DNA from: Escherichia coli
GTDB taxonomy: Bacteria > Pseudomonadota > Gammaproteobacteria > Enterobacterales > Enterobacteriaceae
Length of the DNA: 64,000 nucleotides
Strand: one strand, 5' to 3'
Assembly (NCBI RefSeq): GCF_046105845.1
Contig: NZ_CP151004.1
The translations under genes were made by a program, and so were the position numbers. This document shows, in pieces, positions 15,210 to 62,727 of this stretch. The notes beneath the pieces are model-generated. The model saw only the letters and a list, made by a program, of their open reading frames with translations, did no database searches and was not told the origin of the DNA. How positions within the stretch are numbered: position 1 is the first letter of the stretch; the number at the start of each line of letters is the position of its first letter.

Positions 15210-15224
15210 TAATAGTGCACGACT

Positions 15225-15311
15225 GCCGGATGCGGCGTAAACGCCTTATCCGGTCTACGGGTGGCGCGGGAATTTGTAGGCCTGATAAGACGCGTCAGCG
15301 TCGCATCAGGC
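15225..15311. repeat. REP/BIME element (two inverted REP palindromes)
   Basis: GCCGGATGCGGCGTAAACGCCTTATCCGGTCTAC followed by GTAGGCCTGATAAGACGCGTCAGCGTCGCATCAGGC, between convergent frmB and yaiL. Confidence 0.65.
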
Positions 15312-15334
15312 ATCTGCGCACGACTTATCTATGT

Positions 15335-17280: not shown

Positions 17281-17314
17281 GTAGGCCGGACAAGACGTTT
17301 ACGCCGCATCCGGC
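17281..17314. repeat. REP element
   Basis: GTAGGCCGGACAAGACGTTTACGCCGCATCCGGC between mhpE and mhpT. Confidence 0.65.
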
Positions 17315-17362
17315 AGTCGTGCTGGGATGGGCATACAAAATGCACGTTCTCGGCAGTCATCA

Positions 17363-47514: not shown

Positions 47515-48564
47515 TCAGTCTGTTAGTGTGCGATTATCGATAACAAAACGATATTTCACATCACCACGCAGCATTCGCTCATAGGCTTCATTAATTTGAT
47601 CGGCCCGAATCATCTCTATATCAGCCACGATGCCATGTTCGGCGCAAAAATCGAGCATCTCCTGAGTTTCTGGAATGCCGCCAATCATAGAGCCGGCTAT
47701 CGCGCGGCGTTTCATGATCAGGTTGAAAACTTCCGGCGATTTATGCGGTGTCGCAGGCGCACCAACCAGCGTCATGGTGCCATCGCGCTTCAGCAAGGTG
47801 GTAAAATCGTCGAGATTATGTGGCGCAGCTACTGTATTCAAAATGAAATCGAAACTCTTCAGATGAGCCGCCATCTCATCGGCATTGCGTGAGTTAACAA
47901 CTTCATCGGCCCCCAGGGCTTTTGCCGCTTCGCGTTTTGACTCCGAAGTGGTAAATGCCACCACATGTGCCCCCATCGCGTGGGCCAGCTTAATCCCCAT
48001 ATGTCCCAGACCGCCGATGCCAACCACGCCCACTTTTTTACCCGGCCCGGCCTGCCAGTGACGTAGCGGCGAGTATGTGGTGATCCCTGCACACAATAAA
48101 GGAGCCACCGCCGCCAGCTGCTCTTGCGGGTGACGAATACGCAGAACATATCGCTCATGAACGACGATCTGTTGTGAGTAGCCGCCCAGCGTATGGCCCG
48201 GTTCGTCCGGCGTCGGCGAGTTATAGGTGCCGGTCATGTGATCACAGTAGTTTTCCAGCCCGTCTTCACACTCTTCGCAATGTTTACAACTGTCGACAAT
48301 GCAGCCGACACCGACCAGATCGCCCGTCGCATGTTTTTCTACCTGATCACCAACGGCTACCACACGCCCTACAATTTCATGGCCCGGCACGCAGGGATAA
48401 ACCGTCCCCGCCCACTCGGAACGGACCTGGTGGATATCGGAATGGCAGACGCCACAGTAAGCGATTTCAATTTTGACATCATGCGGTCCCGGTTCACGCC
48501 TGGTAATATCCATCGGTTCCAGCGGTTGTTTAGCGGAATATGCACCAACAGCTTTGATCTTCAT
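47515..48564 (-). CDS. yahK: NADPH-dependent aldehyde reductase (Zn-dependent MDR alcohol dehydrogenase)
   Basis: 349 aa; Zn ligand motif GHEIVGRV and Rossmann GVVGIGGLGHMG; AGGAG RBS. Confidence 0.93.
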   Translation of the reverse strand: MKIKAVGAYSAKQPLEPMDITRREPGPHDVKIEIAYCGVCHSDIHQVRSEWAGTVYPCVPGHEIVGRVVAVGDQVEKHATGDLVGVGCIVDSCKHCEECEDGLENYCDHMTGTYNSPTPDEPGHTLGGYSQQIVVHERYVLRIRHPQEQLAAVAPLLCAGITTYSPLRHWQAGPGKKVGVVGIGGLGHMGIKLAHAMGAHVVAFTTSESKREAAKALGADEVVNSRNADEMAAHLKSFDFILNTVAAPHNLDDFTTLLKRDGTMTLVGAPATPHKSPEVFNLIMKRRAIAGSMIGGIPETQEMLDFCAEHGIVADIEMIRADQINEAYERMLRGDVKYRFVIDNRTLTD

Positions 48565-48650
48565 TGTGTTTACTCCTGATTAGCTATGTGTATTTGGCGA
48601 TGCCTGATATGTCATCGCGGCAAAACGCGTCCATTGAATATAGCCAATAT

Positions 48651-49607
48651 TTAAACCACCCGATCCAGCCCCAACATGCCGCGAGCCTGAATGAAACAGA
48701 GCAGCAACGTTCCCCATAAGGCCATCGTCAGGTAGGGACTTATACCGAGAATATTGAAGCCGCTTTCAATAATTTGCAGAAGAAACAGCGCCAGCACCAT
48801 ACCAATTATCCGCCCGCTGCCGCCGTCCGGATTAACCCCGCCGAGTACTGCCGCGAGGATTGACACCAGCAAGTACGATTCGCCATAAGAGGCCTTAGCC
48901 GAGTTGAGTTTCGACATCATCAAAAATGCCGCTACCGCACAAAGCAAGGCGGAAATGACATACACCCATATCAGCACCCGACGAGTGTTAATACCGGAGT
49001 AAAGTGTTGCTCGTTCGTTAGAACCAATCAGATAAATGGATTTACCGAGCGGCGTTTTCTCCAGCAATATCCACAGCCCCAGCGCCACTGCGGCAAACAA
49101 CCACATCGGTAGCGGAATACCGAACCATTGCGCATGATTCAACCACAGCACCCATGAGGGATAATTGGCAATGGCGCTACCACCTGTCACCAGAATATTT
49201 ATCCCTTTGAGCAACGTCATCATCCCAAGCGTTGCAAGAATTGGCGACACTCGAATACCAGCAATCAATACGCCGTTACATAAACCGATTATCACCGCCG
49301 CGCCAGCGCCCGCCAGTAACGTAGCGACAACCGTAGCAATACCCGGTGGATACTGAGTCGCCACCCACGCCATCACCAGTGAACAGGCGTTAGCAGTGGC
49401 AATAATTGACAAGTTAATGCCACCGCAAAGCATGGTCACCGCCATAGCCAACGCCAGAATGCCCAGCACGGGCATTTGCGAAGCGACGGACTGGAAATTA
49501 CTTATCGACCAGAAAATCTCCGGCATAGTAATGCTGAACGCGGCAACCGTTAGCACCAGCAGGCCGATCAAGTAAAACTCAACGTTATTACGCCACGATT
49601 TTTTCAT
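48651..49607 (-). CDS. Sugar-type ABC transporter permease (second of two)
   Basis: Polytopic membrane protein; ATG 49607 overlaps the stop of the upstream permease (ATGA). Confidence 0.8.
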   Translation of the reverse strand: MKKSWRNNVEFYLIGLLVLTVAAFSITMPEIFWSISNFQSVASQMPVLGILALAMAVTMLCGGINLSIIATANACSLVMAWVATQYPPGIATVVATLLAGAGAAVIIGLCNGVLIAGIRVSPILATLGMMTLLKGINILVTGGSAIANYPSWVLWLNHAQWFGIPLPMWLFAAVALGLWILLEKTPLGKSIYLIGSNERATLYSGINTRRVLIWVYVISALLCAVAAFLMMSKLNSAKASYGESYLLVSILAAVLGGVNPDGGSGRIIGMVLALFLLQIIESGFNILGISPYLTMALWGTLLLCFIQARGMLGLDRVV

Positions 49608-50575
49608 AGCAGACTCCGGTTCTGATGCTGACTCCACGCCGTGGCGCTAATGCTGGCAACGATGATGATGCCTGTGATCAATGTTTGCCAGTAAGACGAG
49701 ACTCCCAATAAATTTAGCCCGTTTTGCATCACTGCCAACAACACCACGCCGAGCAAAGTACCGGTTAACGTGCCGCGCCCGCCGAGCAAACTAGTGCCGC
49801 CAAGCACCACCGCAGCCAGTACTGTCAGCTCATAACCCAGAAGAGAATCGGGGGCGACAGTCATCACCGTCCACGACTGCACTACACCCGCAGCGCCAGA
49901 CATCAATCCCATATAGCCATAGACGAAAAGTTGCAGTTTCAGCACGCTAAAGCCGATGCGACTGGCTGATTCACGATTCCCGCCAAGGGCATAAATTTTG
50001 CGCCCTACACTGGTGAAATTCATGATAAACGCTGTCAGCAGCACCACCGTAATCATGGCGATCAGCGGCAGACCAAGGCCATAGTCATAGCCGTCAGCAT
50101 CGGTGTACTTGAACAACATTATCCCCTGCTCAAACCACGGCGGAAAGTCGTACAGCCACACACCTTTACTCAACCATAACAGCAGGCCATAGAAAATATT
50201 CAGCGTCGAAATGGTGATGATGATAGACGGCACCCGTAGGCGATTAACCAGTAAGGCGTTTATTAAGCCAAGTAAAATGCCGATGCCGCCCGCCAGGGCA
50301 AACGCGACAGCAAAGTTGCCACCAATTTTTTGCAGCAACAGCACCATGCCGTATTGCGCAATGATGGTCATTGCCGGAAACGAAATATCAATCCCACCGG
50401 AAATTAACACCACAAACAAACCACAGGCGAGAATAGTCAACATGGCATAGTTATTGGCGAGATCGTACAAATTACCGAATGTCAGAAACTCGTCGCTGCG
50501 CCAGGCAAGGCCGACAAACAGCCCCACAATCAGTAATGCCAGCCAGAATTCATGGCGTTTTTTCAGTTCAGCCAT
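49604..50575 (-). CDS. Sugar-type ABC transporter permease (first of two)
   Basis: 323-aa polytopic membrane protein; start overlaps the ATPase stop. Confidence 0.8.
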   Translation of the reverse strand: MAELKKRHEFWLALLIVGLFVGLAWRSDEFLTFGNLYDLANNYAMLTILACGLFVVLISGGIDISFPAMTIIAQYGMVLLLQKIGGNFAVAFALAGGIGILLGLINALLVNRLRVPSIIITISTLNIFYGLLLWLSKGVWLYDFPPWFEQGIMLFKYTDADGYDYGLGLPLIAMITVVLLTAFIMNFTSVGRKIYALGGNRESASRIGFSVLKLQLFVYGYMGLMSGAAGVVQSWTVMTVAPDSLLGYELTVLAAVVLGGTSLLGGRGTLTGTLLGVVLLAVMQNGLNLLGVSSYWQTLITGIIIVASISATAWSQHQNRSLL

Positions 50576-52052
50576 TTACCACCTCCGCAATTCTGGCCTG
50601 AGAACTGCTGTCAGGCAGGAAGCTATGGGTGATCTGACCTTTTTGCATTACCAAAATCCGGTGGCTTTGATACCACGCTTCTTCAATTTCATCGCAGATC
50701 ATCAATACCGCAATGCCATGAGCCGCCAGATCGCTGATAATGCCGTATATTCCTGCTTTGTTGGCGATATCAACACCGACTGTCGGGCTATCGAGAATCA
50801 ACAGTCGTGGCCCAATCGCCAGCCATTTGGCGATCGATACTCGCTGCGCGTTACCCCCGGAAAGCGTATTCACCGGGAGATGTGGGTCAGAGACTTTGAT
50901 GGTCAATGCCTTGATTAGCCTGTCCACCAGGTCACGCACTTTAGCTTCACTCAGAAAGCCGAAGCGATCTTTTACCTTGTGAAAAACAGTGCTAATGATG
51001 TTGTCTTCAATAGATTGCGCCATCACCAAACCGCGCGACATGCGATCTTCCGAAACATAACCAATACCGTGGCGGATGGCGTCCTGGTTACTATGCAGTG
51101 TAACCGGCTGACCGTTGATGAGGATCTCACCAGCATCCGGTCGGGTCATACCAAACAGACTCAGACATAATTCCGTGCGCCCCGCACCAAGCAGGCCAAC
51201 AATCGACACCACTTCGCCCGCTTCCACCCGCAAGTTAATATTTTGATATTCCCCCTGACGACTTAAATTACGCACCTCCAGCACCCGGGTGCTGGATTTT
51301 CCCTGCCACAACTCTCGCACCTGATATTCAAACTCCTGGCCGGTCATCAGGAAACCGAGTTGTTTTGTGGTCATCTCTGCAGCCGGAAAGGTCCCGACCA
51401 GCTCACCATCTTTCAACACTGAAATACGGTCGGAAACTTCCATCACTTCTTCCAGACGATGACTGACGAAGACCACGCAGATCCCGCGTTCCCGCAATTG
51501 ATGCACCACCTGTAATAACCCTTGCACTTCCTGATGGGTCAGCGAAGCGGTGGGTTCATCCATCACGATCAACCGTGCGTCCTGCGCCAGTGCACGGCAA
51601 ATTGCCACCAGCTGACAGCGGGCAATTGAAAGCTCAGAAACGAGCGTATCCAGTGGCAATGTGACGTTAATACTGGTCATTGCCGCCTGCGCCACCTCAC
51701 GCAGACGACGGCGGTTAACAAACAGACCGTGGTGATAGTGATTCACGGCGATATTCTCCCAGACACTCAGGTTAGGAAATAAAGAGAGGTCCTGATAAAT
51801 CACCTGAATCCCCTGCGCCACCGAAGCGGCGGGTGTCAGCTTTGACCAGTTTTTCCCACCAAGCGTAATTTCCGCCCCCTCATCCGGGCGATAAACACCG
51901 GACATAATTTTAATCAACGTCGATTTACCACAGCCGTTTTGCCCGGCAAGGCAGTGCACCTCACCCGACATAAAGTCGAGAGAAACATCGCGCAGCGCTC
52001 GCGTGGCATGAAACGTTTTGTTGATATGACGAAGGGAAAGGAAGGTTTCCAT
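50568..52052 (-). CDS. Sugar-type ABC transporter ATP-binding protein with duplicated nucleotide-binding domains
   Basis: Walker A GQNGCGKST in the first half and LSGGNAQR signature in the second; two-NBD architecture typical of ribose/AI-2-type importers; ATG 52052 preferred over the TTG at 52067. Confidence 0.85.
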   Translation of the reverse strand: METFLSLRHINKTFHATRALRDVSLDFMSGEVHCLAGQNGCGKSTLIKIMSGVYRPDEGAEITLGGKNWSKLTPAASVAQGIQVIYQDLSLFPNLSVWENIAVNHYHHGLFVNRRRLREVAQAAMTSINVTLPLDTLVSELSIARCQLVAICRALAQDARLIVMDEPTASLTHQEVQGLLQVVHQLRERGICVVFVSHRLEEVMEVSDRISVLKDGELVGTFPAAEMTTKQLGFLMTGQEFEYQVRELWQGKSSTRVLEVRNLSRQGEYQNINLRVEAGEVVSIVGLLGAGRTELCLSLFGMTRPDAGEILINGQPVTLHSNQDAIRHGIGYVSEDRMSRGLVMAQSIEDNIISTVFHKVKDRFGFLSEAKVRDLVDRLIKALTIKVSDPHLPVNTLSGGNAQRVSIAKWLAIGPRLLILDSPTVGVDIANKAGIYGIISDLAAHGIAVLMICDEIEEAWYQSHRILVMQKGQITHSFLPDSSSQARIAEVVNG

Positions 52053-52074
52053 AGCATCCCCTGGCAATAAGAAT

Positions 52075-52090
52075 CGGGGCTTTCGCCCCG
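52075..52090 (-). other. Perfect hairpin between the binding-protein and ATPase genes
   Basis: CGGGGC-TTTC-GCCCCG. Confidence 0.4.
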
Positions 52091-52100
52091 AAGAAATGGA

Positions 52101-53087
52101 TTAATAAAGTGAGTCGATATTGTCTTTGTTGACCAGTAATACCTTATGGAAACGGATAATTCGCTTATCCATATCTACGTCGGCCTTACCGAGATTCTCC
52201 ATTTCTAATCCAGGTTTGATCTCTTCACCCTTCAGCAACGTGCTGGCGACGGCCGCGAGTGCGTAACCTGCAGAGGCCGGATCGTAAGTAATCCCTTCAG
52301 TGATATCACCACTTTTAATCAGTGATGCCGCCTGTGAAGGGATCATCATGCCATAGACTGCGACTTTATTTTTCGCCCGTTTCTCTTTCACTGCACGTCC
52401 CGCGCCAATCGGACCGTTTGAACCAAAGGAGACAACCGCTTTCAAGTCAGGATAGGTTTTCATCAGGTCCAGTGTGGTTCGACGTGAGTCATCCACACTC
52501 TCGGCAACCGGCATGCGGCGGGTAACTTCATGCATATCCGGGTAATGCTCTTTCTGGTATTTCACCAGCAAGTCAGCCCATAAGTTATGCTGCGGCACGG
52601 TCAAACTACCCACGTAAATCACATAGCCGCCCTTGCCACCCATGCGTTTCGCCATATGCTCAACATATTCAGCGGCAAATTTTTCGTTATCAATGATTTC
52701 GATATCCCAGTTAGCACTTGGCTGACCGGGGGATTCGTTGGTCAGAACCACAATTCCGGCATCTCGCGCTTTTTTGAATACCGGTTCCAGCACGTTGGCA
52801 TCGTTTGGCACAATTGTAATTGCATTAACCTTACGGGCGATTAAATCCTCAATGATTTTAACCTGTTGCGGAGCATCAGTACTTGAAGGCCCCACCTGTG
52901 ACGCATTAACACCAAAGGCTTTACCCGCCTCGACCACACCTTCGCCCATGCGATTAAACCAAGGCATACCATCGACTTTAGAGATATTCACCACGACTTT
53001 TTCCGCTGCCTGGAGCGGCGCAGAAATTAGCGCAGCGCCTAATAACAGCGAAGACACCATATTGATAACAAAACGTTTATTCATCAT
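52101..53087 (-). CDS. Periplasmic substrate-binding protein (type 1 sugar-binding fold, RbsB/LsrB-like)
   Basis: 328 aa; signal peptide ending LQAAEK; GAGG RBS; C-terminal ...KVLLVNKDNIDSLY resembles the LsrB C-terminus as I recall it. Confidence 0.8.
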   Translation of the reverse strand: MMNKRFVINMVSSLLLGAALISAPLQAAEKVVVNISKVDGMPWFNRMGEGVVEAGKAFGVNASQVGPSSTDAPQQVKIIEDLIARKVNAITIVPNDANVLEPVFKKARDAGIVVLTNESPGQPSANWDIEIIDNEKFAAEYVEHMAKRMGGKGGYVIYVGSLTVPQHNLWADLLVKYQKEHYPDMHEVTRRMPVAESVDDSRRTTLDLMKTYPDLKAVVSFGSNGPIGAGRAVKEKRAKNKVAVYGMMIPSQAASLIKSGDITEGITYDPASAGYALAAVASTLLKGEEIKPGLEMENLGKADVDMDKRIIRFHKVLLVNKDNIDSLY

Positions 53088-53266: not shown

Positions 53267-53337
53267 AAAATAGCAAAATAAACAAAATTAGCGATACTTT
53301 ATGTTTGTGAGCTTATTTCGCGTAGAAAAATAGTTAT

Positions 53338-53748
53338 CTACACAACGTCAATAAGGGCATATTCTTCAAAGATAACGTCCATTTCGGGTGAATAGTATCC
53401 TTCTGCCTGGAAAAAACGACGGTGTTCATTACGCCAATATTCAAGACTGAGGTCACCTTCACCTTCCTTACGGGCAAGCTCCGCGGTGACATCAGAAAAG
53501 CGCAGTAAATGCAGGCCAATCACTCTGATAACACAGACAGGCTCACCACGGCTATTTTCTACAATCTTATACTCACCAATCATCGGAAATGCGTTGTCTT
53601 CAATACATCCCGCCAGCGAACCACAGGAAGCTGTTTTAACACCAGTCGCAATCAACGTTGCGAGGTGATCGGCCAACGCTGCTGAATCGCCAAAAGTACA
53701 AAAGGAAGCATGGGGATATTTTTGTGAGATTTTTTCTTTTATGGTCAT
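53338..53748 (-). CDS. Small ASCH-like domain protein (putative)
   Basis: 136 aa from ATG 53748 (MTIKEKISQKYP...); a G-x-K-T motif (GVKTASCG) and overall size resemble ASCH/YqfB-type proteins; weak RBS. Confidence 0.4.
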   Translation of the reverse strand: MTIKEKISQKYPHASFCTFGDSAALADHLATLIATGVKTASCGSLAGCIEDNAFPMIGEYKIVENSRGEPVCVIRVIGLHLLRFSDVTAELARKEGEGDLSLEYWRNEHRRFFQAEGYYSPEMDVIFEEYALIDVV

Positions 53749-54047: not shown

Positions 54048-55430
54048 TCAACCTGCCACACTCCCCCACACCAGTTGTCCTTTATGGAACGTTGCCGTTC
54101 TCGGCGAGATACGCGCCACCGCCTCGGCGGAACAGGAGGCGTCCACCAGCACAAAACTGGCGTCATCCTGCGCTTTGGGCCACACGCGCTCGCCTTTTTC
54201 ATTCAGCGGCAATACATCGCCAGTGGCTAAAAACAGCGAACGGGACAAATTCTGTTCGTTAGGGCGAATATAGAGCTGCGCGTACAGATTGGCTTTTTCC
54301 AGCATGTCGCCCAGGCCGTAAGGTGACCAGTGGTCGATAACGCTGTCAGTTCCTGTCATGACTTTTACGCCTTTGTCGTGCAGTTGTTTGAGCGGCATAT
54401 GCAGCGTGCCAATCGGCACCGTCGAAGCGATAGAAATTTGCTGCGCCGCCATCCGGTGCGCCAGTTCATCTACCTGTTGTTCGTTGAGCGTTGCCAGCGC
54501 GAAGGCGTGGCTGATGGTCAGCTTGCCCTTCAGCTGTGGCGTTTTCTCTACCGTTTCAACCATATAGTTGATGGCTGCCACGCCTGCCGGAGTGGTTTCG
54601 TGCAGGTGAATATCGACGCCTTTGTCGTAGTCCAGCGCAATCTGGAACATGGTGTCGAGGGATTTTTCCATCGCGCCATCAACACTGGTTGGGTCCAGCC
54701 CGCCGACGTAATGCGCCCCCGCCTGCATCGCTTCGCGCATTAAGGGTTCTGATTTCGACAGCAGCAAACCGTGCTGCGGGAAGGCGACAATTTCACACTC
54801 GAAGCCCGCCTGACGTCGCGCCAGCACCGCCTGCAAATTTTGCAGATTTTTCAGGCCGGAAACCGGTTCGATATTGCAGTGGCTGCGGGCAATGGTAGTG
54901 CCTTTCGACTGCAATAAATCGATCAGTTTTTCCGCTCGTTCCTGAGTGTACGGTTGCAGCTCCGGCAGCATTTTCTGCTCGAGTTTGATCATGTCCTGGA
55001 TGGTGGTGCCTGCCGGGCGATTGAGCGAGCGCCACGGCCCGCCGTAAAAGGTTTTGTCGAGATGAATATGCATGTCACGGGTGGTGGGCAGCATCAGCTT
55101 ACCGCCAGCGTCATAGTGCGGCAGCGTGGCGTCCGGATGCTGCTTGTTCTCGCGCAGGGCAACAATTTTGCCGTTCTGAATCTCTACGGTCTGGTGCGCC
55201 GTGCGGGTCTGTACCGCCACGCCATTTTCGTAGTCAAAACCGGTTTCCAGCAGCACGTTGTCGAGATAGTAGTGCGGGTCAGTGATTTTCATGGTGTTAT
55301 TCGCGTCGCAGTGGGTTGTGCCAGAGACTGCCGCATGGGCGAGCGGCACAGAGGTACCAAACAGCGCGGCGGCGGTGACCATCTTACCGCTCTGGCTCAG
55401 AAACTCACGGCGGCTATTGTTTTTTTTCAT
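54048..55430 (-). CDS. yahJ: Tat-exported amidohydrolase-superfamily deaminase-like protein
   Basis: 460 aa; twin-arginine signal MKKNNSRREFLSQSGKMVTAAALFGTSVPLAHA; metal-dependent amidohydrolase HxH motif (MHIHLD). Confidence 0.9.
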   Translation of the reverse strand: MKKNNSRREFLSQSGKMVTAAALFGTSVPLAHAAVSGTTHCDANNTMKITDPHYYLDNVLLETGFDYENGVAVQTRTAHQTVEIQNGKIVALRENKQHPDATLPHYDAGGKLMLPTTRDMHIHLDKTFYGGPWRSLNRPAGTTIQDMIKLEQKMLPELQPYTQERAEKLIDLLQSKGTTIARSHCNIEPVSGLKNLQNLQAVLARRQAGFECEIVAFPQHGLLLSKSEPLMREAMQAGAHYVGGLDPTSVDGAMEKSLDTMFQIALDYDKGVDIHLHETTPAGVAAINYMVETVEKTPQLKGKLTISHAFALATLNEQQVDELAHRMAAQQISIASTVPIGTLHMPLKQLHDKGVKVMTGTDSVIDHWSPYGLGDMLEKANLYAQLYIRPNEQNLSRSLFLATGDVLPLNEKGERVWPKAQDDASFVLVDASCSAEAVARISPRTATFHKGQLVWGSVAG

Positions 55431-55439
55431 CTTACGTCC

Positions 55440-56390
55440 TTACGTTTTAATAATATGGGTGCCCGTTTCGCCACGCAGCGCCGCGGGCAGGCATTCCGGC
55501 GTGGTGATAATCACTTCTTTACCGCCCTGTTCCAGGAACGTCAGGCTGGCGATGATTTTTGGCAACATGCTGCCAGGCGGAAAATGCCCTTCCTGCATAT
55601 AGCGGGTCATGGTGGCAATATCCACCCGATCCAGCGCCTGCTGCTGCGGTTTGCCAAAGTGAATACACACTTTTTCGACGCCGGTGGTGATCACCAGAAT
55701 GTCGGCGTGAATTTCACGGGCCAATAGCGCGGTAGAGAGATCTTTGTCGATAACCGCGTCCACACTTTGGTAATCTCCCGCTTCGGTGCGCACCACAGGA
55801 ATTCCGCCGCCGCCCGCGCCAATCACCACAAAGCCTTGTTGGATCAGCGCCTTAATGGCCGGTGCTTCGACAATACGTTTCGGTTCCGGCGAGGCGACCA
55901 CGCGGCGATAGCCCCGTCCGGCATCTTCAACAAAACGCCAGTCAGGGTTTGCCTTTTGTAATTCGTCACGCTGGCTTTCACTAAAGAATGCGCCGATGGG
56001 CTTGGTGGGATGGGCAAACCCCGGATCGTTTTTATCCACTTCCACCTGAGTCACCACGGTGACGGCTTTTTTCTCGCCGTGACGCGCCAGTCGGTTATTC
56101 AGCGCCTGTTGGATCAGATAGCCAATGCCGCCTTGCGTATCCGCCACACAGTTCGCCAGCGGCGTTAAGGGCAGCCCTTCGCGCTCGTGGGCTATCTCCG
56201 CGCGGCGTAAATCCAGACCGACCTGCGGCCCGTTGCCGTGGGTCAGCACAATGTCGTAATCGGAAGCCAGCATTTCCAGCACCGTATCGGCCACGGCTTT
56301 CACCGCCTCCGCCTGATGCTCAATCGACTGGCTGGCGTTATCTTTGATAATGCTGTTGCCACCAATGGCAACGACCACAAGTTCTTTCAT
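55440..56390 (-). CDS. yahI: Carbamate kinase-like protein
   Basis: 316 aa from ATG 56390 (MKELVVVAIGGNSI...THGNGPQVG); amino-acid kinase fold. Confidence 0.9.
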   Translation of the reverse strand: MKELVVVAIGGNSIIKDNASQSIEHQAEAVKAVADTVLEMLASDYDIVLTHGNGPQVGLDLRRAEIAHEREGLPLTPLANCVADTQGGIGYLIQQALNNRLARHGEKKAVTVVTQVEVDKNDPGFAHPTKPIGAFFSESQRDELQKANPDWRFVEDAGRGYRRVVASPEPKRIVEAPAIKALIQQGFVVIGAGGGGIPVVRTEAGDYQSVDAVIDKDLSTALLAREIHADILVITTGVEKVCIHFGKPQQQALDRVDIATMTRYMQEGHFPPGSMLPKIIASLTFLEQGGKEVIITTPECLPAALRGETGTHIIKT

Positions 56391-56484
56391 GTTGTTATGT
56401 CCGCTACAGAGGGTGATGGGGTTATGAGAGTGAGGTTGCCCCTCTCCCCAGAAGGGAGAAGGGATCGTAAGGTGCGTTTGCAGG

Positions 56485-57903
56485 TCAGACGCCGTAACGT
56501 TCGCACCAGCCAAGAATGGCTTTTTCGAAGCAGGCGAATGGTGGATGCACAATGCCCGCGCCAATCATGCCGACGCCCGCATCTTTATGGGCGATGGCGG
56601 TGTTGATCACTGGCAGAATGCCGCTACTGCCCACGCGGGTGATGTCGATTGCCGACGGCACGCCCATAAAACCGAGCAGCGGAATGGTGACGTTGGGGTT
56701 TTCACCGAGAGTGATTTCACGCATCTGGCGGGAGAAATCGATAGCCTCTTCCACCGTGCCGCCCACCAGCGCAACGATTGCAGGCGCGGTCGCCATGGCA
56801 AATCCGCCAATGCCGTAGGTTTCAGTGATGGCGCTGTCGCCGATATCCAGCCCCGAATCTTCCGGCTTATAACCGGCAAACATCGGCCCGATCACCTGCT
56901 GCGCCGGACCGGTAAACCATTGCCCCGGTAATCCGCTGACCCGCAGGCCGAACTCGACGCCGTTACGCGCCATGGTGGTCACCACAGTGCTGTATTCGAT
57001 GCCGTGCGCCGCATCCATCGCCGCTTTACACATCGCCATCCACGTCGGGCCGGAGAAGTAGTCACTGCTGGCGACAAACTCAAACACTTCGCGCTGTTGC
57101 TCGACGGAGTAGCCCGCCTGAATAATCCCCGGCGTCAGCGCCTGAATCAGCAGCGTCGTCCCGGCGTTATTGCGGTTATGGCACTCATCGCCCATATGCA
57201 GCGCCTGCGCCAGCATTAAGCGCAGATCGATCTCGCCGATAATTTTCATCGCATCGCGCAGCATGGGCCCCTGCACATCGCGCATCCAGTTGAGGCGGTC
57301 GATCACGCTCTGGTCGTTAGCGCCCATACGCAAAATCTTCGCCATCTGCTCGCTCATATTGGTGTAAGCGATGTTGCCGTAGGTTTTGTTTTTCACGATG
57401 TGCATAAACATCGAGGCCGAGGTAACACCCGCCATCGATCCCACACAGTCGTGTTCATGGCACGGCGAGAAGGTGATCTCCCCGGAGGCCGCCAGGTCAG
57501 CCGCCTCGTCGAGATCTTTCGCCAGCCCTTCGAACACCAGCGCCCCGGTGACCGCGCCTTTCATTGCGCCGCACATTTTTTCCCAGGTCACTGGCGGCCC
57601 GGCGTGAAGAATGGTTTTCGGCGTCATTCCCGGCACCACGTTAATCGCCTGATCAAAACCAATCAGCACCGGATGCGACTGGATAATGCGCTCCAGCGCC
57701 TGCTGGTTAGCGGCGGCGATTTTGTCCGCCAGCGGGGAATCGGCAATGTTGTCCAGCGCCTGCACCACCTGCATATTGCCCTGCCCCGGCGGCGTCCAGT
57801 CGAGTTGAGTCACTTCTACATGCTGCTTTTTCAGGTCATCGCTAAACATGGCGATGCCGACGTTAATAACGTTCAATGGTTGGCTAAACAGTGACTGGCT
57901 CAT
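56485..57903 (-). CDS. yahG: DUF1116-family protein (YlbE paralog)
   Basis: 472 aa; start overlaps the yahF stop. Confidence 0.88.
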   Translation of the reverse strand: MSQSLFSQPLNVINVGIAMFSDDLKKQHVEVTQLDWTPPGQGNMQVVQALDNIADSPLADKIAAANQQALERIIQSHPVLIGFDQAINVVPGMTPKTILHAGPPVTWEKMCGAMKGAVTGALVFEGLAKDLDEAADLAASGEITFSPCHEHDCVGSMAGVTSASMFMHIVKNKTYGNIAYTNMSEQMAKILRMGANDQSVIDRLNWMRDVQGPMLRDAMKIIGEIDLRLMLAQALHMGDECHNRNNAGTTLLIQALTPGIIQAGYSVEQQREVFEFVASSDYFSGPTWMAMCKAAMDAAHGIEYSTVVTTMARNGVEFGLRVSGLPGQWFTGPAQQVIGPMFAGYKPEDSGLDIGDSAITETYGIGGFAMATAPAIVALVGGTVEEAIDFSRQMREITLGENPNVTIPLLGFMGVPSAIDITRVGSSGILPVINTAIAHKDAGVGMIGAGIVHPPFACFEKAILGWCERYGV

Positions 57904-59450
57904 CAGGCTTCCTCCCCTTTGCAGATAAATTCACGCGCCAGCAATCCGGTATTGGTGCTACTGCTGGCCAGAGTCACTCCGGCATCAAGCAGCATCTGGC
58001 TTTGTTGTTCTAATGATGGCGTATCAAGATCGGTACCCAGCACATAGGCGAGAATGATCAACTCACGTCCTTCGGCAGCGGCGATCGCTTTCGCCTCTTT
58101 GATCGCCTCGATGGTGGAACCGACCGGATCTTCATGCGATCCAAATCCGAGCACAAAATCCATCACGATCACCGCCACTTCTGGATCGCGCGCCTCTTCG
58201 ATCAAGCGGCTGATACGGTTGGTCGGGTCAATCATTGGATGCGGCTTGCCGTTGGTGAAGTCGTCATCGCCAAAGTCGAGGAAGGTGTGTTTGATGCTGC
58301 GGTTGATATCTTGCAGGCGGAATTCAGGATCGGGCTGAATATTGCTGTAGACATCGCCATGTTTTTCCATCACCGCGAACATGGTTTCGTCACACAGCGT
58401 ACCGCCGCAGAACAGGCCACGAATGTATTTCTGCTGCGGTTGCAGGCGAGCGCGCACGTCAGCAATCAACGACTGGTTCAGCGTATGCAGCTCGAGATGT
58501 TCCTGTTTCACGCCGGAGAGCATCACCGCTTTCAATGCCGCCTCTTTACTGCCGCGGGCAAACTGTAGCCCCTGCTCATCCACTGGCGTTTCGCCACGAC
58601 CGAGGAAGCAGACCACCACCGGCTTGCGGCAGGCACGTGCGCGTTCCAGCACTTTGCGGGCCACCGCAGGCGCAGGCGGTTTGGAGATAAGCACAATGAT
58701 TTCAGTTTGCGGATCGTTTTCCAGCATCCCGATGGCGTCGAGCATCATCAGGCCGCCGATTTTCTCGCTCAGGTCGCGCCCGCCGGTGCCAATCAGTTGC
58801 GAAACGCCGCCGCCAAATTCATGGATACGGACGCTCAGCTCCTGGCTGCCGGTGCCAGATGCGCCAACAATACCGATGTTGCCGCGACGCACGGCGTTAC
58901 CAAAGCAGAGCGCCGCGCCGTTGATAATCGCCGTGCCGCAGTCTGGCCCCATCATCAGCAGCCCTTTTTCGTGGGCCAGTTGTTTGAGCGCCAGTTCATC
59001 TTCAACTGAGACGTTATCGGAAAACAGCATCACGTTAAGATCGTTTTGCAGTGCCTGACGCGCTTCGCGAGCAGCAAACAGACCGTTGACCGAAATCACC
59101 GCCAGGTTACTTTCCGGGATATGCTTTTTGGCGCTGGCAATAGTGGCGTAACGCGCCTCGTGCGAGCCGCTTTGCGCTTTGGTGTTGAACAGTTCTTCAA
59201 TCTCCACCAGCAACTGCTCGTTGTCTGCGCCCGCTTTGCCGTTAATGACAATCATCAGGTCGCCGTTTTTCGCCTGCTCCAGCTCCGGCGTCAGCAGCCC
59301 TAAATTCTTCAGTACGCCTTTGTTCATTTCGGTCGCCATCGCCACAAATGCCTGCTCGACGCCGTCGAGTTTATTTGCACGCGTGGAGATAGACATCAGC
59401 GAGACAGAATCAAAATAGGTATTCGGTTTAATGACTATTTTAACTGACAT
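57903..59450 (-). CDS. yahF: FdrA-like protein (succinyl-CoA-synthetase-alpha-like CoA-binding fold)
   Basis: 515 aa; GGAGGG RBS. Confidence 0.88.
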   Translation of the reverse strand: MSVKIVIKPNTYFDSVSLMSISTRANKLDGVEQAFVAMATEMNKGVLKNLGLLTPELEQAKNGDLMIVINGKAGADNEQLLVEIEELFNTKAQSGSHEARYATIASAKKHIPESNLAVISVNGLFAAREARQALQNDLNVMLFSDNVSVEDELALKQLAHEKGLLMMGPDCGTAIINGAALCFGNAVRRGNIGIVGASGTGSQELSVRIHEFGGGVSQLIGTGGRDLSEKIGGLMMLDAIGMLENDPQTEIIVLISKPPAPAVARKVLERARACRKPVVVCFLGRGETPVDEQGLQFARGSKEAALKAVMLSGVKQEHLELHTLNQSLIADVRARLQPQQKYIRGLFCGGTLCDETMFAVMEKHGDVYSNIQPDPEFRLQDINRSIKHTFLDFGDDDFTNGKPHPMIDPTNRISRLIEEARDPEVAVIVMDFVLGFGSHEDPVGSTIEAIKEAKAIAAAEGRELIILAYVLGTDLDTPSLEQQSQMLLDAGVTLASSSTNTGLLAREFICKGEEA

Positions 59451-60303
59451 AATTCCCTCCGTAGGTTTGGCTCAGCGCACAACCATCGGCCATGCCATAC
59501 AGCATGTCGCAGCCGGAACTGGAGCCAATATGTTTAATTTTTTCTATTGCCTGAGTTGCGTTCCCAGGGATGTCATAAATAATGTTATGAATAAAACGAT
59601 GAATATTTTCCCGGCAGCGTTGTTGTAATGCGGCTTCCAGCGTTATGGCACTTAATAACGTGGTATTATTTCTGCCGCGTTGCAGACCGAGATAAAATTC
59701 CTCTTTGTATTTTTCCGCCGGATGTCCGGAAATAAATAAAATAAGCGCCAGACCTGTTAAATAATCGTCGGCTGATGGCGTAAGGCCAATCCCTAAGCCC
59801 ATCATACTGGCGACTGCTGAGGCGATATTTTGTTTATCGTTTACGGCCTGAATAACTGCCCGTCGTTTAATATGTAATTCTTTATTTAACGCCTGATAAA
59901 ACGGATTATCGCCGCAATAATTAAACAGGGTTTCATTTTCCCCCAGGTGCTGATGAATAATGTCATGCCACTGTTGCCAGGCGATAAGGTGAAAATTCAC
60001 AGCGGTCATTTGCAAGGTTGGGGACAGCCAACGCCGACAACGACTCATCTCTATATGAAGATGTTGACCAACCGTAATGCCTTGATCGTCAAACTGAACC
60101 TTATCACCATGCCGGAACAGACCATCAAAGTGAGTGAGTGCCAACCGACAACTGTTTGGCGCATTGTCATACTCTTCACAAAGCAGCGTCAGCAACTGCT
60201 GGCGGGCCGGAAGTGCGATATTTACCGCTCTGGCAAAGACCTGTTCAACCTGTCCTTGCCCCCGCTGTGCCAGAAAATCCGCATCCGCAGTTAGCGCCCA
60301 CAC
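59440..60303 (-). CDS. yahE: Uncharacterised protein YahE (YlbF-like)
   Basis: 287 aa; GTG start; 11-nt overlap with yahF. Confidence 0.8.
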   Translation of the reverse strand: MWALTADADFLAQRGQGQVEQVFARAVNIALPARQQLLTLLCEEYDNAPNSCRLALTHFDGLFRHGDKVQFDDQGITVGQHLHIEMSRCRRWLSPTLQMTAVNFHLIAWQQWHDIIHQHLGENETLFNYCGDNPFYQALNKELHIKRRAVIQAVNDKQNIASAVASMMGLGIGLTPSADDYLTGLALILFISGHPAEKYKEEFYLGLQRGRNNTTLLSAITLEAALQQRCRENIHRFIHNIIYDIPGNATQAIEKIKHIGSSSGCDMLYGMADGCALSQTYGGNYVS

Positions 60304-60342
60304 ACACCGTCTTTCTGGTGTGTTGATAGCAAGCCTCCCGGT

Positions 60343-60948
60343 TTATGCACCTGCGGCAATCAGTAACTGTGCAATCTCTTCAAAGCCTCGTTCCCGCGCC
60401 AGTTCCAGCGGCGTTTTGCCATATTTATCCGTCATGTGCGGGCTGGCACCGTGTTCCAGCAATAACTGGACAATCGCCTGCTGTTTAATCCCGCCATCAT
60501 TAAGCACAATTGCTTCCAGTAGCGGCGTCCAGCCAACATGGTTGGTCTGGTTAACGTTAATCTCCGTATGCGCCAAAAGCTCTTTTACAATACTTAAATG
60601 GCCTTTTTCACAGGCAGGCGTCAGGCCGACACCGCCAAAACGGGTGACGCAATTAAGATCAGGTTTAGCCGGTAAAATAATCCGTAACAGGGTTAAATCG
60701 CCGGTCAGGCAGCTAATTAAAAAAGGATTTGAACATATTTGATCTTGCTTATTAATATCCGCTCCGGCATCAATTAATGCCTGAACGCAAGCATATTGCT
60801 GATATAAACTTGCCAGCGTAATTGCCGTTTTCCCCTGACGATCGCAGGTATTAATATCGACACCCAGCGCAAGGCATGTTTTTACTTTATCGATATCACC
60901 CTGTTGCGCAGCCAATAAATAGTCGGCAGGTAGATTTTTTATAGTCAT
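60343..60948 (-). CDS. yahD: Ankyrin-repeat protein
   Basis: 201 aa with repeated ankyrin-like units (e.g. GKTAITLASLYQQYACVQALIDAGADIN, GWTPLLEAIVLNDGGIKQQAIVQLLLEHGASPH). Confidence 0.88.
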   Translation of the reverse strand: MTIKNLPADYLLAAQQGDIDKVKTCLALGVDINTCDRQGKTAITLASLYQQYACVQALIDAGADINKQDQICSNPFLISCLTGDLTLLRIILPAKPDLNCVTRFGGVGLTPACEKGHLSIVKELLAHTEINVNQTNHVGWTPLLEAIVLNDGGIKQQAIVQLLLEHGASPHMTDKYGKTPLELARERGFEEIAQLLIAAGA

Positions 60949-61053
60949 TCACATTCCCCTGGTTTTTGTGGCTGTTTTCGATGAATTGAGAATAGCAACG
61001 ATAATCTGATAAAAGAACCCGCTTAAATTTAATTCGCCGTATTTCGCCTTTTT

Positions 61054-61070
61054 GTTGAATGATGTTCAAC
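61054..61070. promoter_or_regulatory. Perfect palindrome GTTGAA-N5-TTCAAC in the yahD-yahC divergent region
   Basis: Seen directly; candidate regulator site. Confidence 0.3.
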
Positions 61071-61205
61071 AATCTTTTCGCAGTGTGCGGTAGTGCAATA
61101 TTTGTTTCTTTGACCCGATACCCTTTCACTCAATCAGGTTTTATTTCTCTATAGTCTGCACATGTAAGAGTAGCTTTCGTCCATGTCTAACCAGAGGGGA
61201 ACAAG

Positions 61206-61703
61206 ATGAACGGACTCACGGCAACGGGTGTCACCGTCGGTATTTGTGCAGGGCTTTGGCAGTTAGTGTCTTCACATGTCGGGCTCTCTCAGGGATGGGA
61301 ATTATTAGGAACTATTGGCTTCGTCGCCTTTTGCAGTTTTTATGCCGTAGGCGGCGGTAAATCGGGGTTTATCAGAAGCCTGGCGGTTAATTATTCTGGG
61401 ATGGTGTGGGCGTTTTTCGCCGCGCTGGCTGCCGGTTGGCTGGCCTCGGTGAGTGGATTGTCCACGTTCTGGGCGAGCGTGATTATGACTGTACCCTTCT
61501 CGGCGGTGGTGGTCTGGCAAGGACGTTTCGGTTTATTGTCTTTTATTCCCGGAGGCTTTCTCGGCATGACGCTATTTTTTGCCAGCGGGATGAACTGGAC
61601 GGTGACATTACTGGGTTTTCTGGCGGGTAACTGCGTGGGGATAATTTCAGAATATGGCGGACAAAAATTAAGCGAAGCGACGACTAAACGCGACGGGTAT
61701 TAA
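61206..61703 (+). CDS. yahC: Inner-membrane protein YahC
   Basis: 165 aa with four predicted TM helices. Confidence 0.85.
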   Translation: MNGLTATGVTVGICAGLWQLVSSHVGLSQGWELLGTIGFVAFCSFYAVGGGKSGFIRSLAVNYSGMVWAFFAALAAGWLASVSGLSTFWASVIMTVPFSAVVVWQGRFGLLSFIPGGFLGMTLFFASGMNWTVTLLGFLAGNCVGIISEYGGQKLSEATTKRDGY

Positions 61704-61794
61704 AAGTTATTCAAAAATGATTATCTATCTTTAACCGATACCTCTACAGTCATGGCTGGAGAAATTCATATTCGATAATGGCGGGAATGGTTTA

Positions 61795-62727
61795 ATGAAC
61801 TCAATTTTTACCGAAGAGAATCTGTTGGCATTTACTACCGCTGCGCGTTTTGGCAGCTTCAGTAAAGCCGCAGAAGAGTTGGGTTTAACCACTTCCGCCA
61901 TTAGCTACACCATCAAGCGAATGGAAACAGGGCTGGATGTGGTGCTGTTCACTCGCAGTACCCGAAGCATTGAGTTAACGGAGTCCGGGCGTTATTTTTT
62001 CCGCAAAGCTACCGACCTGCTGAATGATTTTCACGCCATCAAACGCAGCATCGATACTATTTCGCAGGGTATAGAAGCACGGGTGCGCATTTGTATTAAC
62101 CAACTGCTTTATACGCCCAAACACACCGCACGCTTATTACAGGTACTGAAAAAGCAGTTTCCAACCTGCCAGATTACCGTGACGACCGAAGTGTATAACG
62201 GCGTCTGGGATGCGATTATTAATAATCAGGCGAATATTGCTATCGGCGCGCCCGACACACTGCTGGACGGCGGCGGCATTGATTACACGGAGATTGGCGC
62301 AATTCGCTGGGCTTTTGCTATCGCCCCGGATCACCCATTAGCCTTTGTGCCGGAGCCGATCGCCGAAAGCCAACTGCGTCTCTATCCTAATATCATGGTG
62401 GAGGACACCGCGCATACGATTAATAAAAAAGTGGGCTGGTTGCTGCATGGGCAGGAGTCGATTCTGGTGCCAGATTTCAACACCAAATGTCAGTGCCAGA
62501 TTTTAGGTGAAGGAATTGGTTTTTTGCCGGATTACATGGTCCGTGAGGCGATGGCGCAATCCCTGCTGGTTACCCGACAAATCCATAATCCGCGCCAGGA
62601 TTCACGCATGTTACTCGCAACTCAGCATTCTGCTACGGGTCAGGTGACGCAGTGGATTAAAAAACAATTTTCGCCAAATGGCATATTAACGGGGATCTAT
62701 CAGGATTTACTGCATCGGGAGAATTAA
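61795..62727 (+). CDS. yahB: LysR-family transcriptional regulator
   Basis: 310 aa; N-terminal HTH (FSKAAEELGLTTSAISYTIKRME). Confidence 0.9.
   Translation: MNSIFTEENLLAFTTAARFGSFSKAAEELGLTTSAISYTIKRMETGLDVVLFTRSTRSIELTESGRYFFRKATDLLNDFHAIKRSIDTISQGIEARVRICINQLLYTPKHTARLLQVLKKQFPTCQITVTTEVYNGVWDAIINNQANIAIGAPDTLLDGGGIDYTEIGAIRWAFAIAPDHPLAFVPEPIAESQLRLYPNIMVEDTAHTINKKVGWLLHGQESILVPDFNTKCQCQILGEGIGFLPDYMVREAMAQSLLVTRQIHNPRQDSRMLLATQHSATGQVTQWIKKQFSPNGILTGIYQDLLHREN

Follow-up and report, generated by a model that had tools for sequence, protein, structure and literature searches.

The window analysed here, a stretch of 64,000 nucleotides from Escherichia coli (contig NZ_CP151004.1 of assembly GCF_046105845.1), contains an open reading frame at positions 54048-55430 on the minus strand which, when translated, was recognized as E. 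coli yahJ and encodes a product of 460 amino acids. The N-terminus of YahJ reads MKKNNSRREFLSQSGKMVTAAALFGTSVPLAHAAVSG (translation of 54048-55430, minus strand) and the precursor can be written as MKKNNSRREFLSQSGKMVTAAALFGTSVPLAHA|AVSG, with the predicted cut at the bar. The ATG at 55430-55428 is the first start codon downstream of the preceding in-frame stop; it is located 9 nt past the stop codon of yahI and has a Shine-Dalgarno-like sequence, AAGGA, upstream. Three features were delimited within the gene:

55332-55430, minus strand: predicted signal peptide of YahJ, codons 1-33, MKKNNSRREFLSQSGKMVTAAALFGTSVPLAHA, with n-region, twin-arginine motif, h-region and A-H-A (from translation, the conservation profile and TatP, PMC7549933)
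55395-55415, minus strand: Tat consensus S6-R7-R8-E9-F10-L11-S12 (from conservation in 94 orthologues, synonymous Arg codons and 86/88 loci)
54048-55331, minus strand: predicted mature YahJ, residues 34-460 and the stop codon, with a variable linker (residues 34-46) followed by an AtzC/CodA-type amidohydrolase (beta-sandwich and TIM barrel)

An earlier note on this DNA had described an N-terminus with the motif S-R-R-x-F-L, a hydrophobic stretch and an AxA site, and all of these were confirmed by translation and conservation. The span that it gave for the signal, 55335-55430, had the correct start but was one codon short, ending at His32, and was replaced by 55332-55430. The two Arg codons of the motif are at 55407-55412, and SRREFLS agrees with the consensus S/T-R-R-x-F-L-K in 6/7 positions, the final K being S in YahJ. 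The h-region, MVTAAALFGTSVPLA, is uncharged and moderately hydrophobic (mean KD 1.58, only somewhat lower than the 1.93 of the neighbouring Sec signal, that of an ABC binding protein) and is followed by an AxA site, A-H-A, at residues 31-33. Tat signals are longer than typical Sec signals, and that of YahJ is 33 amino acids long. Tat-specific signals typically, though not always, have a basic Sec-avoidance residue in the c-region; no K or R was present in the YahJ c-region TSVPLAHA and the net charge of mature residues 1-10 is -1. The absence of such a residue agrees with the Tat/Sec promiscuity reported for the isolated signal (ssYahJ).

Profile searches contributed little for this region. 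The Pfam Tat-signal HMMs, which are very short and whose weak matches are dropped by the HMMER filters, gave no match on the whole of YahJ or on its isolated N-terminus at E≤10, and in NCBIfam, where the Tat-signal models are likewise very short, the N-terminus matched TIGR02811 alone (E = 0.13). A loose Tat rule that we wrote ourselves flagged 2 of the window's 150 six-frame ORFs with a length of 80 aa or more, while shuffled N-termini gave a chance level of 0.25 matches per set, so that the motif match in YahJ is by itself no more than mildly unusual. The other ORF caught by the rule, at 48193-48579, is an antisense shadow ORF within yahK, and the rule was therefore dropped as evidence.

The conservation of the signal was examined in 94 orthologues (70-98% identity), among which R7 was conserved in 100%, R8 in 99%, F10 in 100%, L11 in 95%, K16 in 96% and A33 in 97%, while the mean conservation of linker residues 34-46 in the same 94 sequences was 36%. 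Of 88 related loci, 86 retained the pattern RRx[F][L/I]; one of the two exceptions was cut at a contig edge and the other had R-H. At the DNA level 59 distinct sequences of the motif were found, with 4 different Arg codons at one of the twin positions and 6 at the other. That the twin arginines are held through synonymous codon change while the linker drifts is the decisive evidence for a Tat motif in YahJ.

The signal has a restricted distribution. Most homologues at 46% identity or less are about 400 aa long, begin at query residues ~50-57 and have no N-terminal extension, and extensions with RR were found in few clades (Enterobacterales, Aeromonas, Microvirga, Caulobacter and Priestia). The NCBIfam model NF005312 begins at YahJ residue 49 and the AF2 model of YahJ is disordered across residues 1-42. 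As judged from these comparisons, the signal is an N-terminal addition confined to certain clades. An RR-bearing homologue with 51% identity to YahJ is located directly upstream of tatA-tatC in Priestia, and a uracil/xanthine transporter is encoded divergently upstream of it. In Bacillus subtilis, PhoD with TatAd-TatCd provides a case of a Tat substrate gene that adjoins its own translocase genes. The Priestia locus resembles it, the YahJ homologue being followed directly by tatA and tatC, whereas yahJ of E. coli is unlinked to tat genes.

The Tat signal of YahJ is already known from the literature, and YahJ appears among the Tat substrates in both TATFIND and TatP lists. One table built on TATFIND includes b0324 yahJ as such a substrate (PMC3027627). 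For an E. coli YahJ with two different residues in the n-region, TatP 1.0 predicted the same peptide, which likewise ends in ...LAHA at the cleavage site (PMC7549933). According to a secondary source, which cites Tullman-Ercek 2007 and Fisher 2008, ssYahJ translocates reporters to the periplasm of E. coli through Tat and Sec, and it has also been put to use in V. natriegens to tag proteins for export (PMC6788121). Given that YahJ has been listed as a Tat substrate of E. coli for some twenty years and that its signal already serves for tagging proteins for export, the finding of a Tat signal adds nothing new. No export experiments on native YahJ (fractionation, tat mutants or N-terminal sequencing) were found in the searchable literature. 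TatP, TATFIND, the reporter literature, conservation and the Priestia tatA-tatC genes all point in the direction taken by the earlier note, namely that the signal is of Tat type and that YahJ, as a consequence, is most likely periplasmic. Deletion of yahJ caused a mild in vivo defect in a mouse competition assay (CI 0.70, p = 0.02; PMC7549933).

Based on profile, structure and model comparisons, the mature domain of YahJ can confidently be assigned as a predicted amidohydrolase of the AtzC/CodA type in which the metal ligands are intact. These ligands are H121, H123, H275, H308 and D362 (HxH / His / His / Asp), and in the homologue alignment H121, H123, D125, H275, H277 and D362 were invariant and H308 was at least 90% conserved. 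YahJ matches Pfam Amidohydro_3/1 and reached 716 bits with NF005312 (cut-off 447) over residues 49-459. The AF2 model had a pLDDT of 90.6, with residues 1-42 below 50. PDB entry 6nbo was matched by phmmer at E = 3.8e-44 and by Foldseek at E = 3e-35 with a target-normalised TM of 0.89, and AtzC and CodA were also found. AtzC (N-isopropylammelide isopropylaminohydrolase) and CodA (cytosine deaminase) are mononuclear-metal amidohydrolases that have the fold and the metal site in common with YahJ, but the sequence identity is just 20-28%, and they are cytoplasmic and without signal peptide whereas YahJ has a 46-residue N-terminal extension. Identity with cytosine deaminase was considered and rejected: these models scored 70-103 bits against cut-offs of 403-483, and YahJ is placed apart from them in a separate NCBIfam subfamily, NF005312. 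Given these scores below the curated cut-offs, YahJ should not be named cytosine deaminase.

Upstream of yahJ, the following genes form the yah cluster and its divergent neighbours:

55440-56390, minus strand: yahI, carbamate kinase family, cytoplasmic (NF009007, 649 bits)
56485-57903, minus strand: yahG, AllG-like (DUF1116; Pfam PF06545 AllG, E = 4.5e-89)
57903-59450, minus strand: yahF (annotated fdrA), AllF-like subunit with CoA-ligase fold (Pfam and NCBIfam scans)
59440-60303, minus strand: yahE, AllH-like (DUF2877; Pfam PF11392 AllH)
60343-60948, minus strand: yahD, ankyrin-repeat protein without signal peptide (present in 55/71 classifiable loci)
61206-61703, plus strand: yahC, DUF1097 membrane protein, divergent (seen only in clusters without the 515-aa permease described below)
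61795-62727, plus strand: yahB, LysR-type regulator, a conserved divergent neighbour (locus comparison)

The gene is the same as yahJ (b0324) of E. coli K-12, with DNA that is 95.4% identical across yahI-yahJ. The K-12 signal has K3/N4 in place of E3/S4 and is otherwise identical, with the same SRREFLS and the same ...LAHA end. The two strains differ in that a REP/'yahH' insert between yahG and yahI is missing here, and in that an ASCH and ABC module follows yahJ here and is deleted in K-12.

The 71 classifiable loci were distributed over four types: 39 had the order ank-E-F-G-permease-I-J, 10 had the YahC version, 6 contained only the ankyrin gene and yahJ, and 16 contained yahJ alone. Across genera, YahD thus accompanies Tat-type YahJ more persistently than any other neighbour, the six loci with only these two genes included. 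The permease of the first type is a 515-aa membrane protein encoded between yahG and yahI in most genera (39 loci), and the E. coli yahJ cluster is without it. The conserved neighbours of yahJ are YahD, the AllFGH-like YahEFG, the carbamate kinase YahI and, in most genera, the nucleobase-permease-like 515-aa protein. The latter is labelled 'xanthine permease' or 'AGZA family' in the source annotations; our sequence searches of Pfam, NCBIfam and PDB gave nothing and hhalign against the Priestia NCS2 permease showed no similarity, and the label 'xanthine permease' thus rests on source annotations only. A structure model of this protein was unusable (pLDDT 44), the alignment being too shallow (84-100% identity). 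On E. coli IncF plasmids the cluster is found with the permease and without yahJ, which indicates that the cytoplasmic part may not depend on YahJ.

The cluster can be compared with allFGH-allK, which encodes oxamic transcarbamylase and a catabolic carbamate kinase that act in the anaerobic degradation of allantoin (PMC11326118, PMC9843812); AllFGH is the experimentally defined oxamic transcarbamylase (PMC11326118), and the yah genes are without mention in that paper. YahE, YahF and YahG match the AllH, AllF and AllG families, respectively, and YahI is a carbamate kinase. By analogy, this suggests that the yah cluster is a paralogous route in which a ureido compound would be converted to carbamoyl phosphate and further to ATP. 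Unlike allFGH-allK, the yah cluster also has a putatively exported amidohydrolase and an ankyrin protein, joined in most genera by a permease.

On the downstream side of yahJ the window contains an Escherichia-specific accessory module:

53338-53748, minus strand: gene for an ASCH-domain protein, 299 bp downstream of yahJ
48651-53084, minus strand: CUT2/sugar-type ABC importer (binding protein 52101-53084, ATPase 50568-52052, permeases 49604-50575 and 48651-49607)

If periplasmic YahJ and the adjacent ABC importer were one unit, YahJ would convert a substrate and the importer would take up the product. The same strand and the adjacent order of yahJ, ASCH, binding protein, ATPase and two permeases are in line with such a unit, as are the predicted periplasmic location of both YahJ and the binding protein and the fact that E. 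coli, being without the 515-aa permease of other genera, would need another importer. We nevertheless regard it as improbable, given how loosely the module is linked to yahJ. The ASCH gene and the four ABC genes were complete in 2213/5426 E. coli genomes, as compared with 5101/5426 that had the yahJ region, and K-12 has deleted the module with yahJ left intact, the scars being the 3' ends of the ASCH gene (70 bp) and of a permease gene. Among the other-species loci that had at least 5.5 kb of downstream flank the module was found in 0/72, and these include clusters of Citrobacter, Klebsiella and Kluyvera in which the 515-aa permease is missing as well; linkage of yahJ with the importer genes was consequently not conserved across strains and species. 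The spacers between the genes, 299 bp and 253 bp long, together with a promoter-like site (10-of-12) after yahJ, suggest that yahJ and the module may be transcribed separately. The binding protein is of the sugar type (Peripla_BP_4) with an ordinary Sec signal, MMNKRFVINMVSSLLLGAALISAPLQA, and in NCBIfam it was nearest to rhamnose and AI-2 sugar-type binders and not to nucleobase-type ones. The ASCH/ABC module is an accessory, Escherichia-specific and often-deleted neighbour that lies outside the conserved system, and the adjoining importer, which had been taken as an argument in the earlier note, loses its force. The suggestion that the substrate is modified outside the cell before uptake is still plausible from other neighbours, i.e. 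the 515-aa permease of 39 loci and the Priestia transporter, but not from the adjacent ABC importer.

Two other explanations concern the N-terminus itself. It could act in vivo chiefly as a Sec signal, the twin arginines being incidental, and this would be compatible with the recognition of ssYahJ by both Tat and Sec (as reported second-hand in PMC6788121), with the lack of a basic residue in the c-region, the net charge of the mature N-terminus and the fairly hydrophobic h-region, and with the silence of the very short Tat-signal HMMs. We give this explanation little credence, since RR, F and L are essentially invariant in over 60 species although their codons have changed synonymously, and a Sec signal would not require such invariance; moreover, tatA-tatC adjoin the Priestia homologue and the cargo is a metal-dependent enzyme whose relatives in the family fold in the cytoplasm. 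Alternatively, YahJ could also, or instead, be produced in the cytoplasm from an internal start at Met47 and work alongside YahEFGI. Met47 precedes the conserved YYLDNV strand by 8 residues, at the point where the homologues of ~400 aa start, and every other enzyme of the operon is cytoplasmic. However, Met is only 43% conserved at this column among orthologues, no Shine-Dalgarno-like sequence was found ahead of it and selection at the protein level clearly acts on the 46 codons upstream. Such a start is very unlikely, and dual localisation via Met47 was rejected for now on the grounds of the poorly conserved Met and the missing Shine-Dalgarno sequence.

The best explanation, and in our judgement a highly probable one, is that the first 33 codons of yahJ encode a cleavable Tat signal peptide, that YahJ is exported and that the ABC/ASCH module is accessory. 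The amidohydrolase domain (residues ~47-460) would then presumably fold and take up its metal in the cytoplasm, the Tat translocase would recognise SRREFLS, YahJ would be moved to the periplasm and signal peptidase I would cut at the predicted site after A-H-A. On reporters, the signal is reported by a secondary source (PMC6788121) to function via Sec as well, which agrees with its lack of a basic Sec-avoidance residue.

With regard to the pathway, we tentatively propose, at somewhat less than an even chance, that YahJ catalyses the initial reaction of the route, acting outside the cytoplasm on a nucleobase-like N-heterocycle, and that the product would be imported and then degraded by YahEFG and YahI. 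Import would occur by the 515-aa permease in most genera and by the uracil/xanthine transporter in Priestia, and the imported product would be broken down in the cytoplasm by the AllFGH-like YahEFG carbamoyltransferase and the carbamate kinase YahI. We infer a possible nucleobase-like substrate from the fold family, the gene neighbours and the annotators' names for the permease.

A more complete version, a hitherto undescribed catabolic route that is split by the inner membrane, is speculative and rather unlikely as a whole: Tat-exported YahJ attacking a nucleobase-like heterocycle in the periplasm, a permease (with YahC instead in Escherichia, Klebsiella and Kluyvera), YahEFG and YahI yielding carbamoyl phosphate and ATP, and YahD as a partner of YahJ. 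The unclassified and very highly conserved 515-aa permease would here import the YahJ product, and YahD, which stays beside YahJ even where the two genes stand alone, might be a dedicated cytoplasmic partner of YahJ, in the role of chaperone, of inhibitor before export or of hitch-hiker. The comparative data separate the truly conserved neighbours of yahJ from the non-conserved ABC importer, and the survey sharpens the open y-gene problem of YahJ and provides a concrete, testable picture of a pathway split between periplasm and cytoplasm.

For the stand-alone copies of yahJ, found in Serratia, Xenorhabdus, Photorhabdus, Shewanella and Labrys, no common neighbour theme was seen. LysR regulators occurred occasionally nearby, as did an isochorismatase-family gene, and the ABC system close to the stand-alone yahJ of Serratia is part of a xylose-type operon.

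The earliest possible start of yahJ is the ATG at 55430, which lies 9 nt past the yahI stop codon and has an AAGGA ribosome-binding sequence upstream. The product begins with MKKNNSRREFLSQSGKMVTAAALFGTSVPLAHA and continues, after the predicted cleavage site, with AVSGTTHCDANNT. The twin-arginine (Tat) signal peptide that the earlier note had placed at 55335-55430 was located correctly but drawn one codon short, as judged from the translation. The 21 kb around the site were 98.6% identical to E. coli strain WP4-S18-ESBL-07. On the minus strand yahD is followed by yahE, yahF/fdrA, yahG, yahI and yahJ, and yahJ in turn by an ASCH-domain gene, the four genes of an ABC importer and yahK; yahC and yahB are divergent from yahD-yahJ.

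Features in and around the yahJ cluster
48193-48579, plus strand: antisense shadow ORF inside yahK, N-terminus MARFVRRRRVIGAGHVITVVF...
53338-53748, minus strand: ASCH-domain gene (136 aa), starting 299 bp past yahJ
54048-55430, minus strand: yahJ (460 aa)
55332-55430, minus strand: YahJ signal peptide (33 codons)
56391-56484: gap between yahG and yahI (94 bp)
60343-60948: yahD, signal-less ankyrin-repeat protein
61206-61703: yahC (DUF1097)

A loose Tat-motif rule of our own was matched by 2 of 150 six-frame ORFs of at least 80 aa in the window (0.25 expected from shuffles), one of them the shadow ORF in yahK, an antisense artefact. The rule is not very specific, and the shadow ORF shows how weak Tat calls based on the motif only are. 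Short curated Tat-signal HMMs gave no response on YahJ. Among 94 YahJ orthologues (70-98% identity), residues R7, R8, F10, L11, K16 and A33 were 95-100% conserved, and mean conservation was 36% for the 13 residues past the cleavage site versus 87% for the mature domain. RRxF[L/I] was kept in 86 of 88 loci obtained from a scan of species-representative genomes and earlier look-ups, the other two being a contig-edge truncation and an R-H variant. Four and six different codons were used at the two arginine positions (59 distinct motif DNA sequences), and selection has therefore acted on the protein and not on the DNA. Conservation at the protein level is thus strong evidence for a real Tat signal, and the twin-arginine observation was confirmed.

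The signal was already known. TatP 1.0 applied to an ExPEC genome listed YahJ with the signal MKESNSRREFLSQSGKMVTAAALFGTSVPLAHA, and in the same study a yahJ deletion gave a competitive index of 0.70 in mice (p = 0.02) (PMC7549933); b0324 yahJ is also among the TATFIND-predicted substrates (PMC3027627). The YahJ signal peptide (ssYahJ) has been employed as an export tag in a paper that, citing earlier work, reports Tat/Sec promiscuity (PMC6788121), which fits a c-region without a basic residue, a mature N-terminus of net charge -1 and a fairly hydrophobic h-region. No report of native YahJ localisation was found in a literature search.

Independent evidence for Tat comes from the gene order in Priestia (Bacillaceae; L009:8374-12438), where a YahJ homologue of 51% identity with an SRRRFIS motif is directly followed by tatA and then tatC, and a divergent upstream gene codes for a uracil/xanthine transporter scoring above the equivalog cut-off. 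Dedicated Tat translocases encoded next to their substrates are known from Firmicutes, an example being TatAd/Cd beside PhoD in B. subtilis, and the Priestia pair looks like such a translocase beside a YahJ-type enzyme.

The enzyme family is cytoplasmic, and the signal is an addition to it. Representatives of 50%-identity clusters were searched exhaustively: of the homologues sharing no more than 46% identity, most were about 400 aa long, began at positions matching YahJ residues ~50-57 and had no hydrophobic N-terminus, and the RR extension was confined to a few clades (Enterobacterales, Aeromonas, Shewanella, Microvirga, Caulobacter and Priestia). The NCBIfam subfamily model NF005312 starts at residue 49, and the AlphaFold2 model (mean pLDDT 90.6) falls below 50 over residues 1-42. 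The folded part resembles AtzC (6nbo, Foldseek E = 3e-35) and cytosine deaminase, with an intact mononuclear metal site (H121, H123, H275, H308, D362). The name cytosine deaminase was rejected, since YahJ scores far under the cut-offs of the cytosine-deaminase models.

The earlier note had coupled a periplasmic YahJ to the adjacent importer; the location is supported, the coupling is not. The 299-bp gap between yahJ and the ASCH gene contains a 10-of-12 promoter-like site, and a further 253 bp separate the ASCH gene from the binding-protein gene, whose product is of the sugar type (Peripla_BP_4, nearest to rhamnose and AI-2 binders) with an ordinary Sec signal. Among 5426 complete E. coli genomes, 2213 had the full module (ASCH gene plus importer) and 5101 the yahJ region. 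Of 72 other-species loci with 5.5 kb or more of sequence beyond the 3' end of yahJ, none contained the module; no ASCH homologue occurred in any of the loci surveyed. In K-12, all that remains between yahJ and yahK is a 70-bp piece from the 3' end of the ASCH gene and ~70 bp from the final permease gene (L002:12594-12727, matching 53316-53385 and ~48651-48722). The difference therefore reflects deletion of the 5-kb module from the K-12 lineage, not its insertion in the window. This pattern of a ~3% remnant recurs in about 2800 E. coli genomes.

Other neighbours were conserved, as seen in 71 classifiable loci.

Architectures of yahJ loci
39 loci: LysR and, divergently, ankyrin-YahE-YahF-YahG-(515-aa membrane protein)-YahI-YahJ
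10 loci: YahC (DUF1097) version without the 515-aa protein (Escherichia, Klebsiella/Raoultella, Kluyvera, Pseudocitrobacter, one Citrobacter)
6 loci: LysR, then ankyrin-YahJ only
16 loci: yahJ by itself or amid unrelated genes

YahI is a carbamate kinase, and YahE, YahF and YahG are members of the AllH, AllF and AllG families, respectively, whose E. coli founders make up oxamic transcarbamylase (PMC11326118). The 515-aa protein (for example L005:6942-8492; also L007 and L016-L076, 39 loci) is polytopic and 512-530 aa long, and in most genera its gene occupies the position between yahG and yahI. Identity is 84-100% within Enterobacterales and Aeromonas, falling to 65-80% for the copies from Firmicutes and from other Proteobacteria. 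The protein had no match in Pfam, NCBIfam or PDB scans; its labels in the source records are 'xanthine permease', 'AGZA family xanthine/uracil permease-like' or 'adenine/guanine/hypoxanthine permease'. YahC and this protein were mutually exclusive (YahC only, n = 10; 515-aa protein only, n = 39; both, n = 0), which suggests that they replace each other functionally.

The comparisons show a conserved Tat-type signal on a catalytically intact AtzC/CodA-like enzyme, whose gene is transcribed together with those for the AllFGH-like proteins and the carbamate kinase of the cytoplasm. YahJ would fold and bind metal in the cytoplasm, then be exported by Tat and cleaved after Ala33. Tentatively, and with some doubt, we propose that periplasmic YahJ converts a nucleobase-like compound, that the cluster's own permease imports the product and that the cell gains carbamoyl phosphate and ATP. 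Against this model, E. coli has lost the permease from the yahG-yahI slot, and E. coli IncF plasmids have the permease cluster without yahJ. Given that the permease and not the ABC module is conserved, the idea of modification outside the cell before uptake may be right in spirit, without the importer that had been named as partner.

The signal-less ankyrin protein stayed with Tat-type YahJ more consistently than any other neighbour (L006:9367-10008; L008:2976-3611; L049, L050, L054, L057, L061, L063, L064, L090) and was its sole conserved partner in Cedecea, Pluralibacter, alphaproteobacterial contigs and Erwinia, where the two reading frames share 8 nt. It may be a chaperone, an inhibitor or a hitch-hiker for the Tat substrate.

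The K-12 yahG-yahI slot holds REP elements annotated yahH; the gap in the window is clean, and copies of that REP-type repeat lie at 15218-15325 and 17281-17321. The permease was matched by 65 E. coli plasmid records. The one inspected, IncF plasmid p8R-1 (CP110411.1 24109-43653), carries a second yah-like cluster without yahJ (LysR, ankyrin, DUF2877, FdrA, DUF1116, 'xanthine permease', carbamate kinase), flanked by IS1 and Tn3-family elements, its permease ~89% identical to that of Serratia. The ASCH protein has relatives with solved but uncharacterised structures (1t62, 3s9x). Some ASCH proteins, e.g. E. coli YqfB, are N4-acylcytidine amidohydrolases, and such an activity here would be a loose echo of the pyrimidine-like theme of YahJ. 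When 54056-59538 and 60123-62664 were compared with two Pseudocitrobacter loci, yahF-yahJ DNA was 93-96% identical and yahB-yahE ~74%, suggesting that the yahFGIJ segment was exchanged recently between genera.
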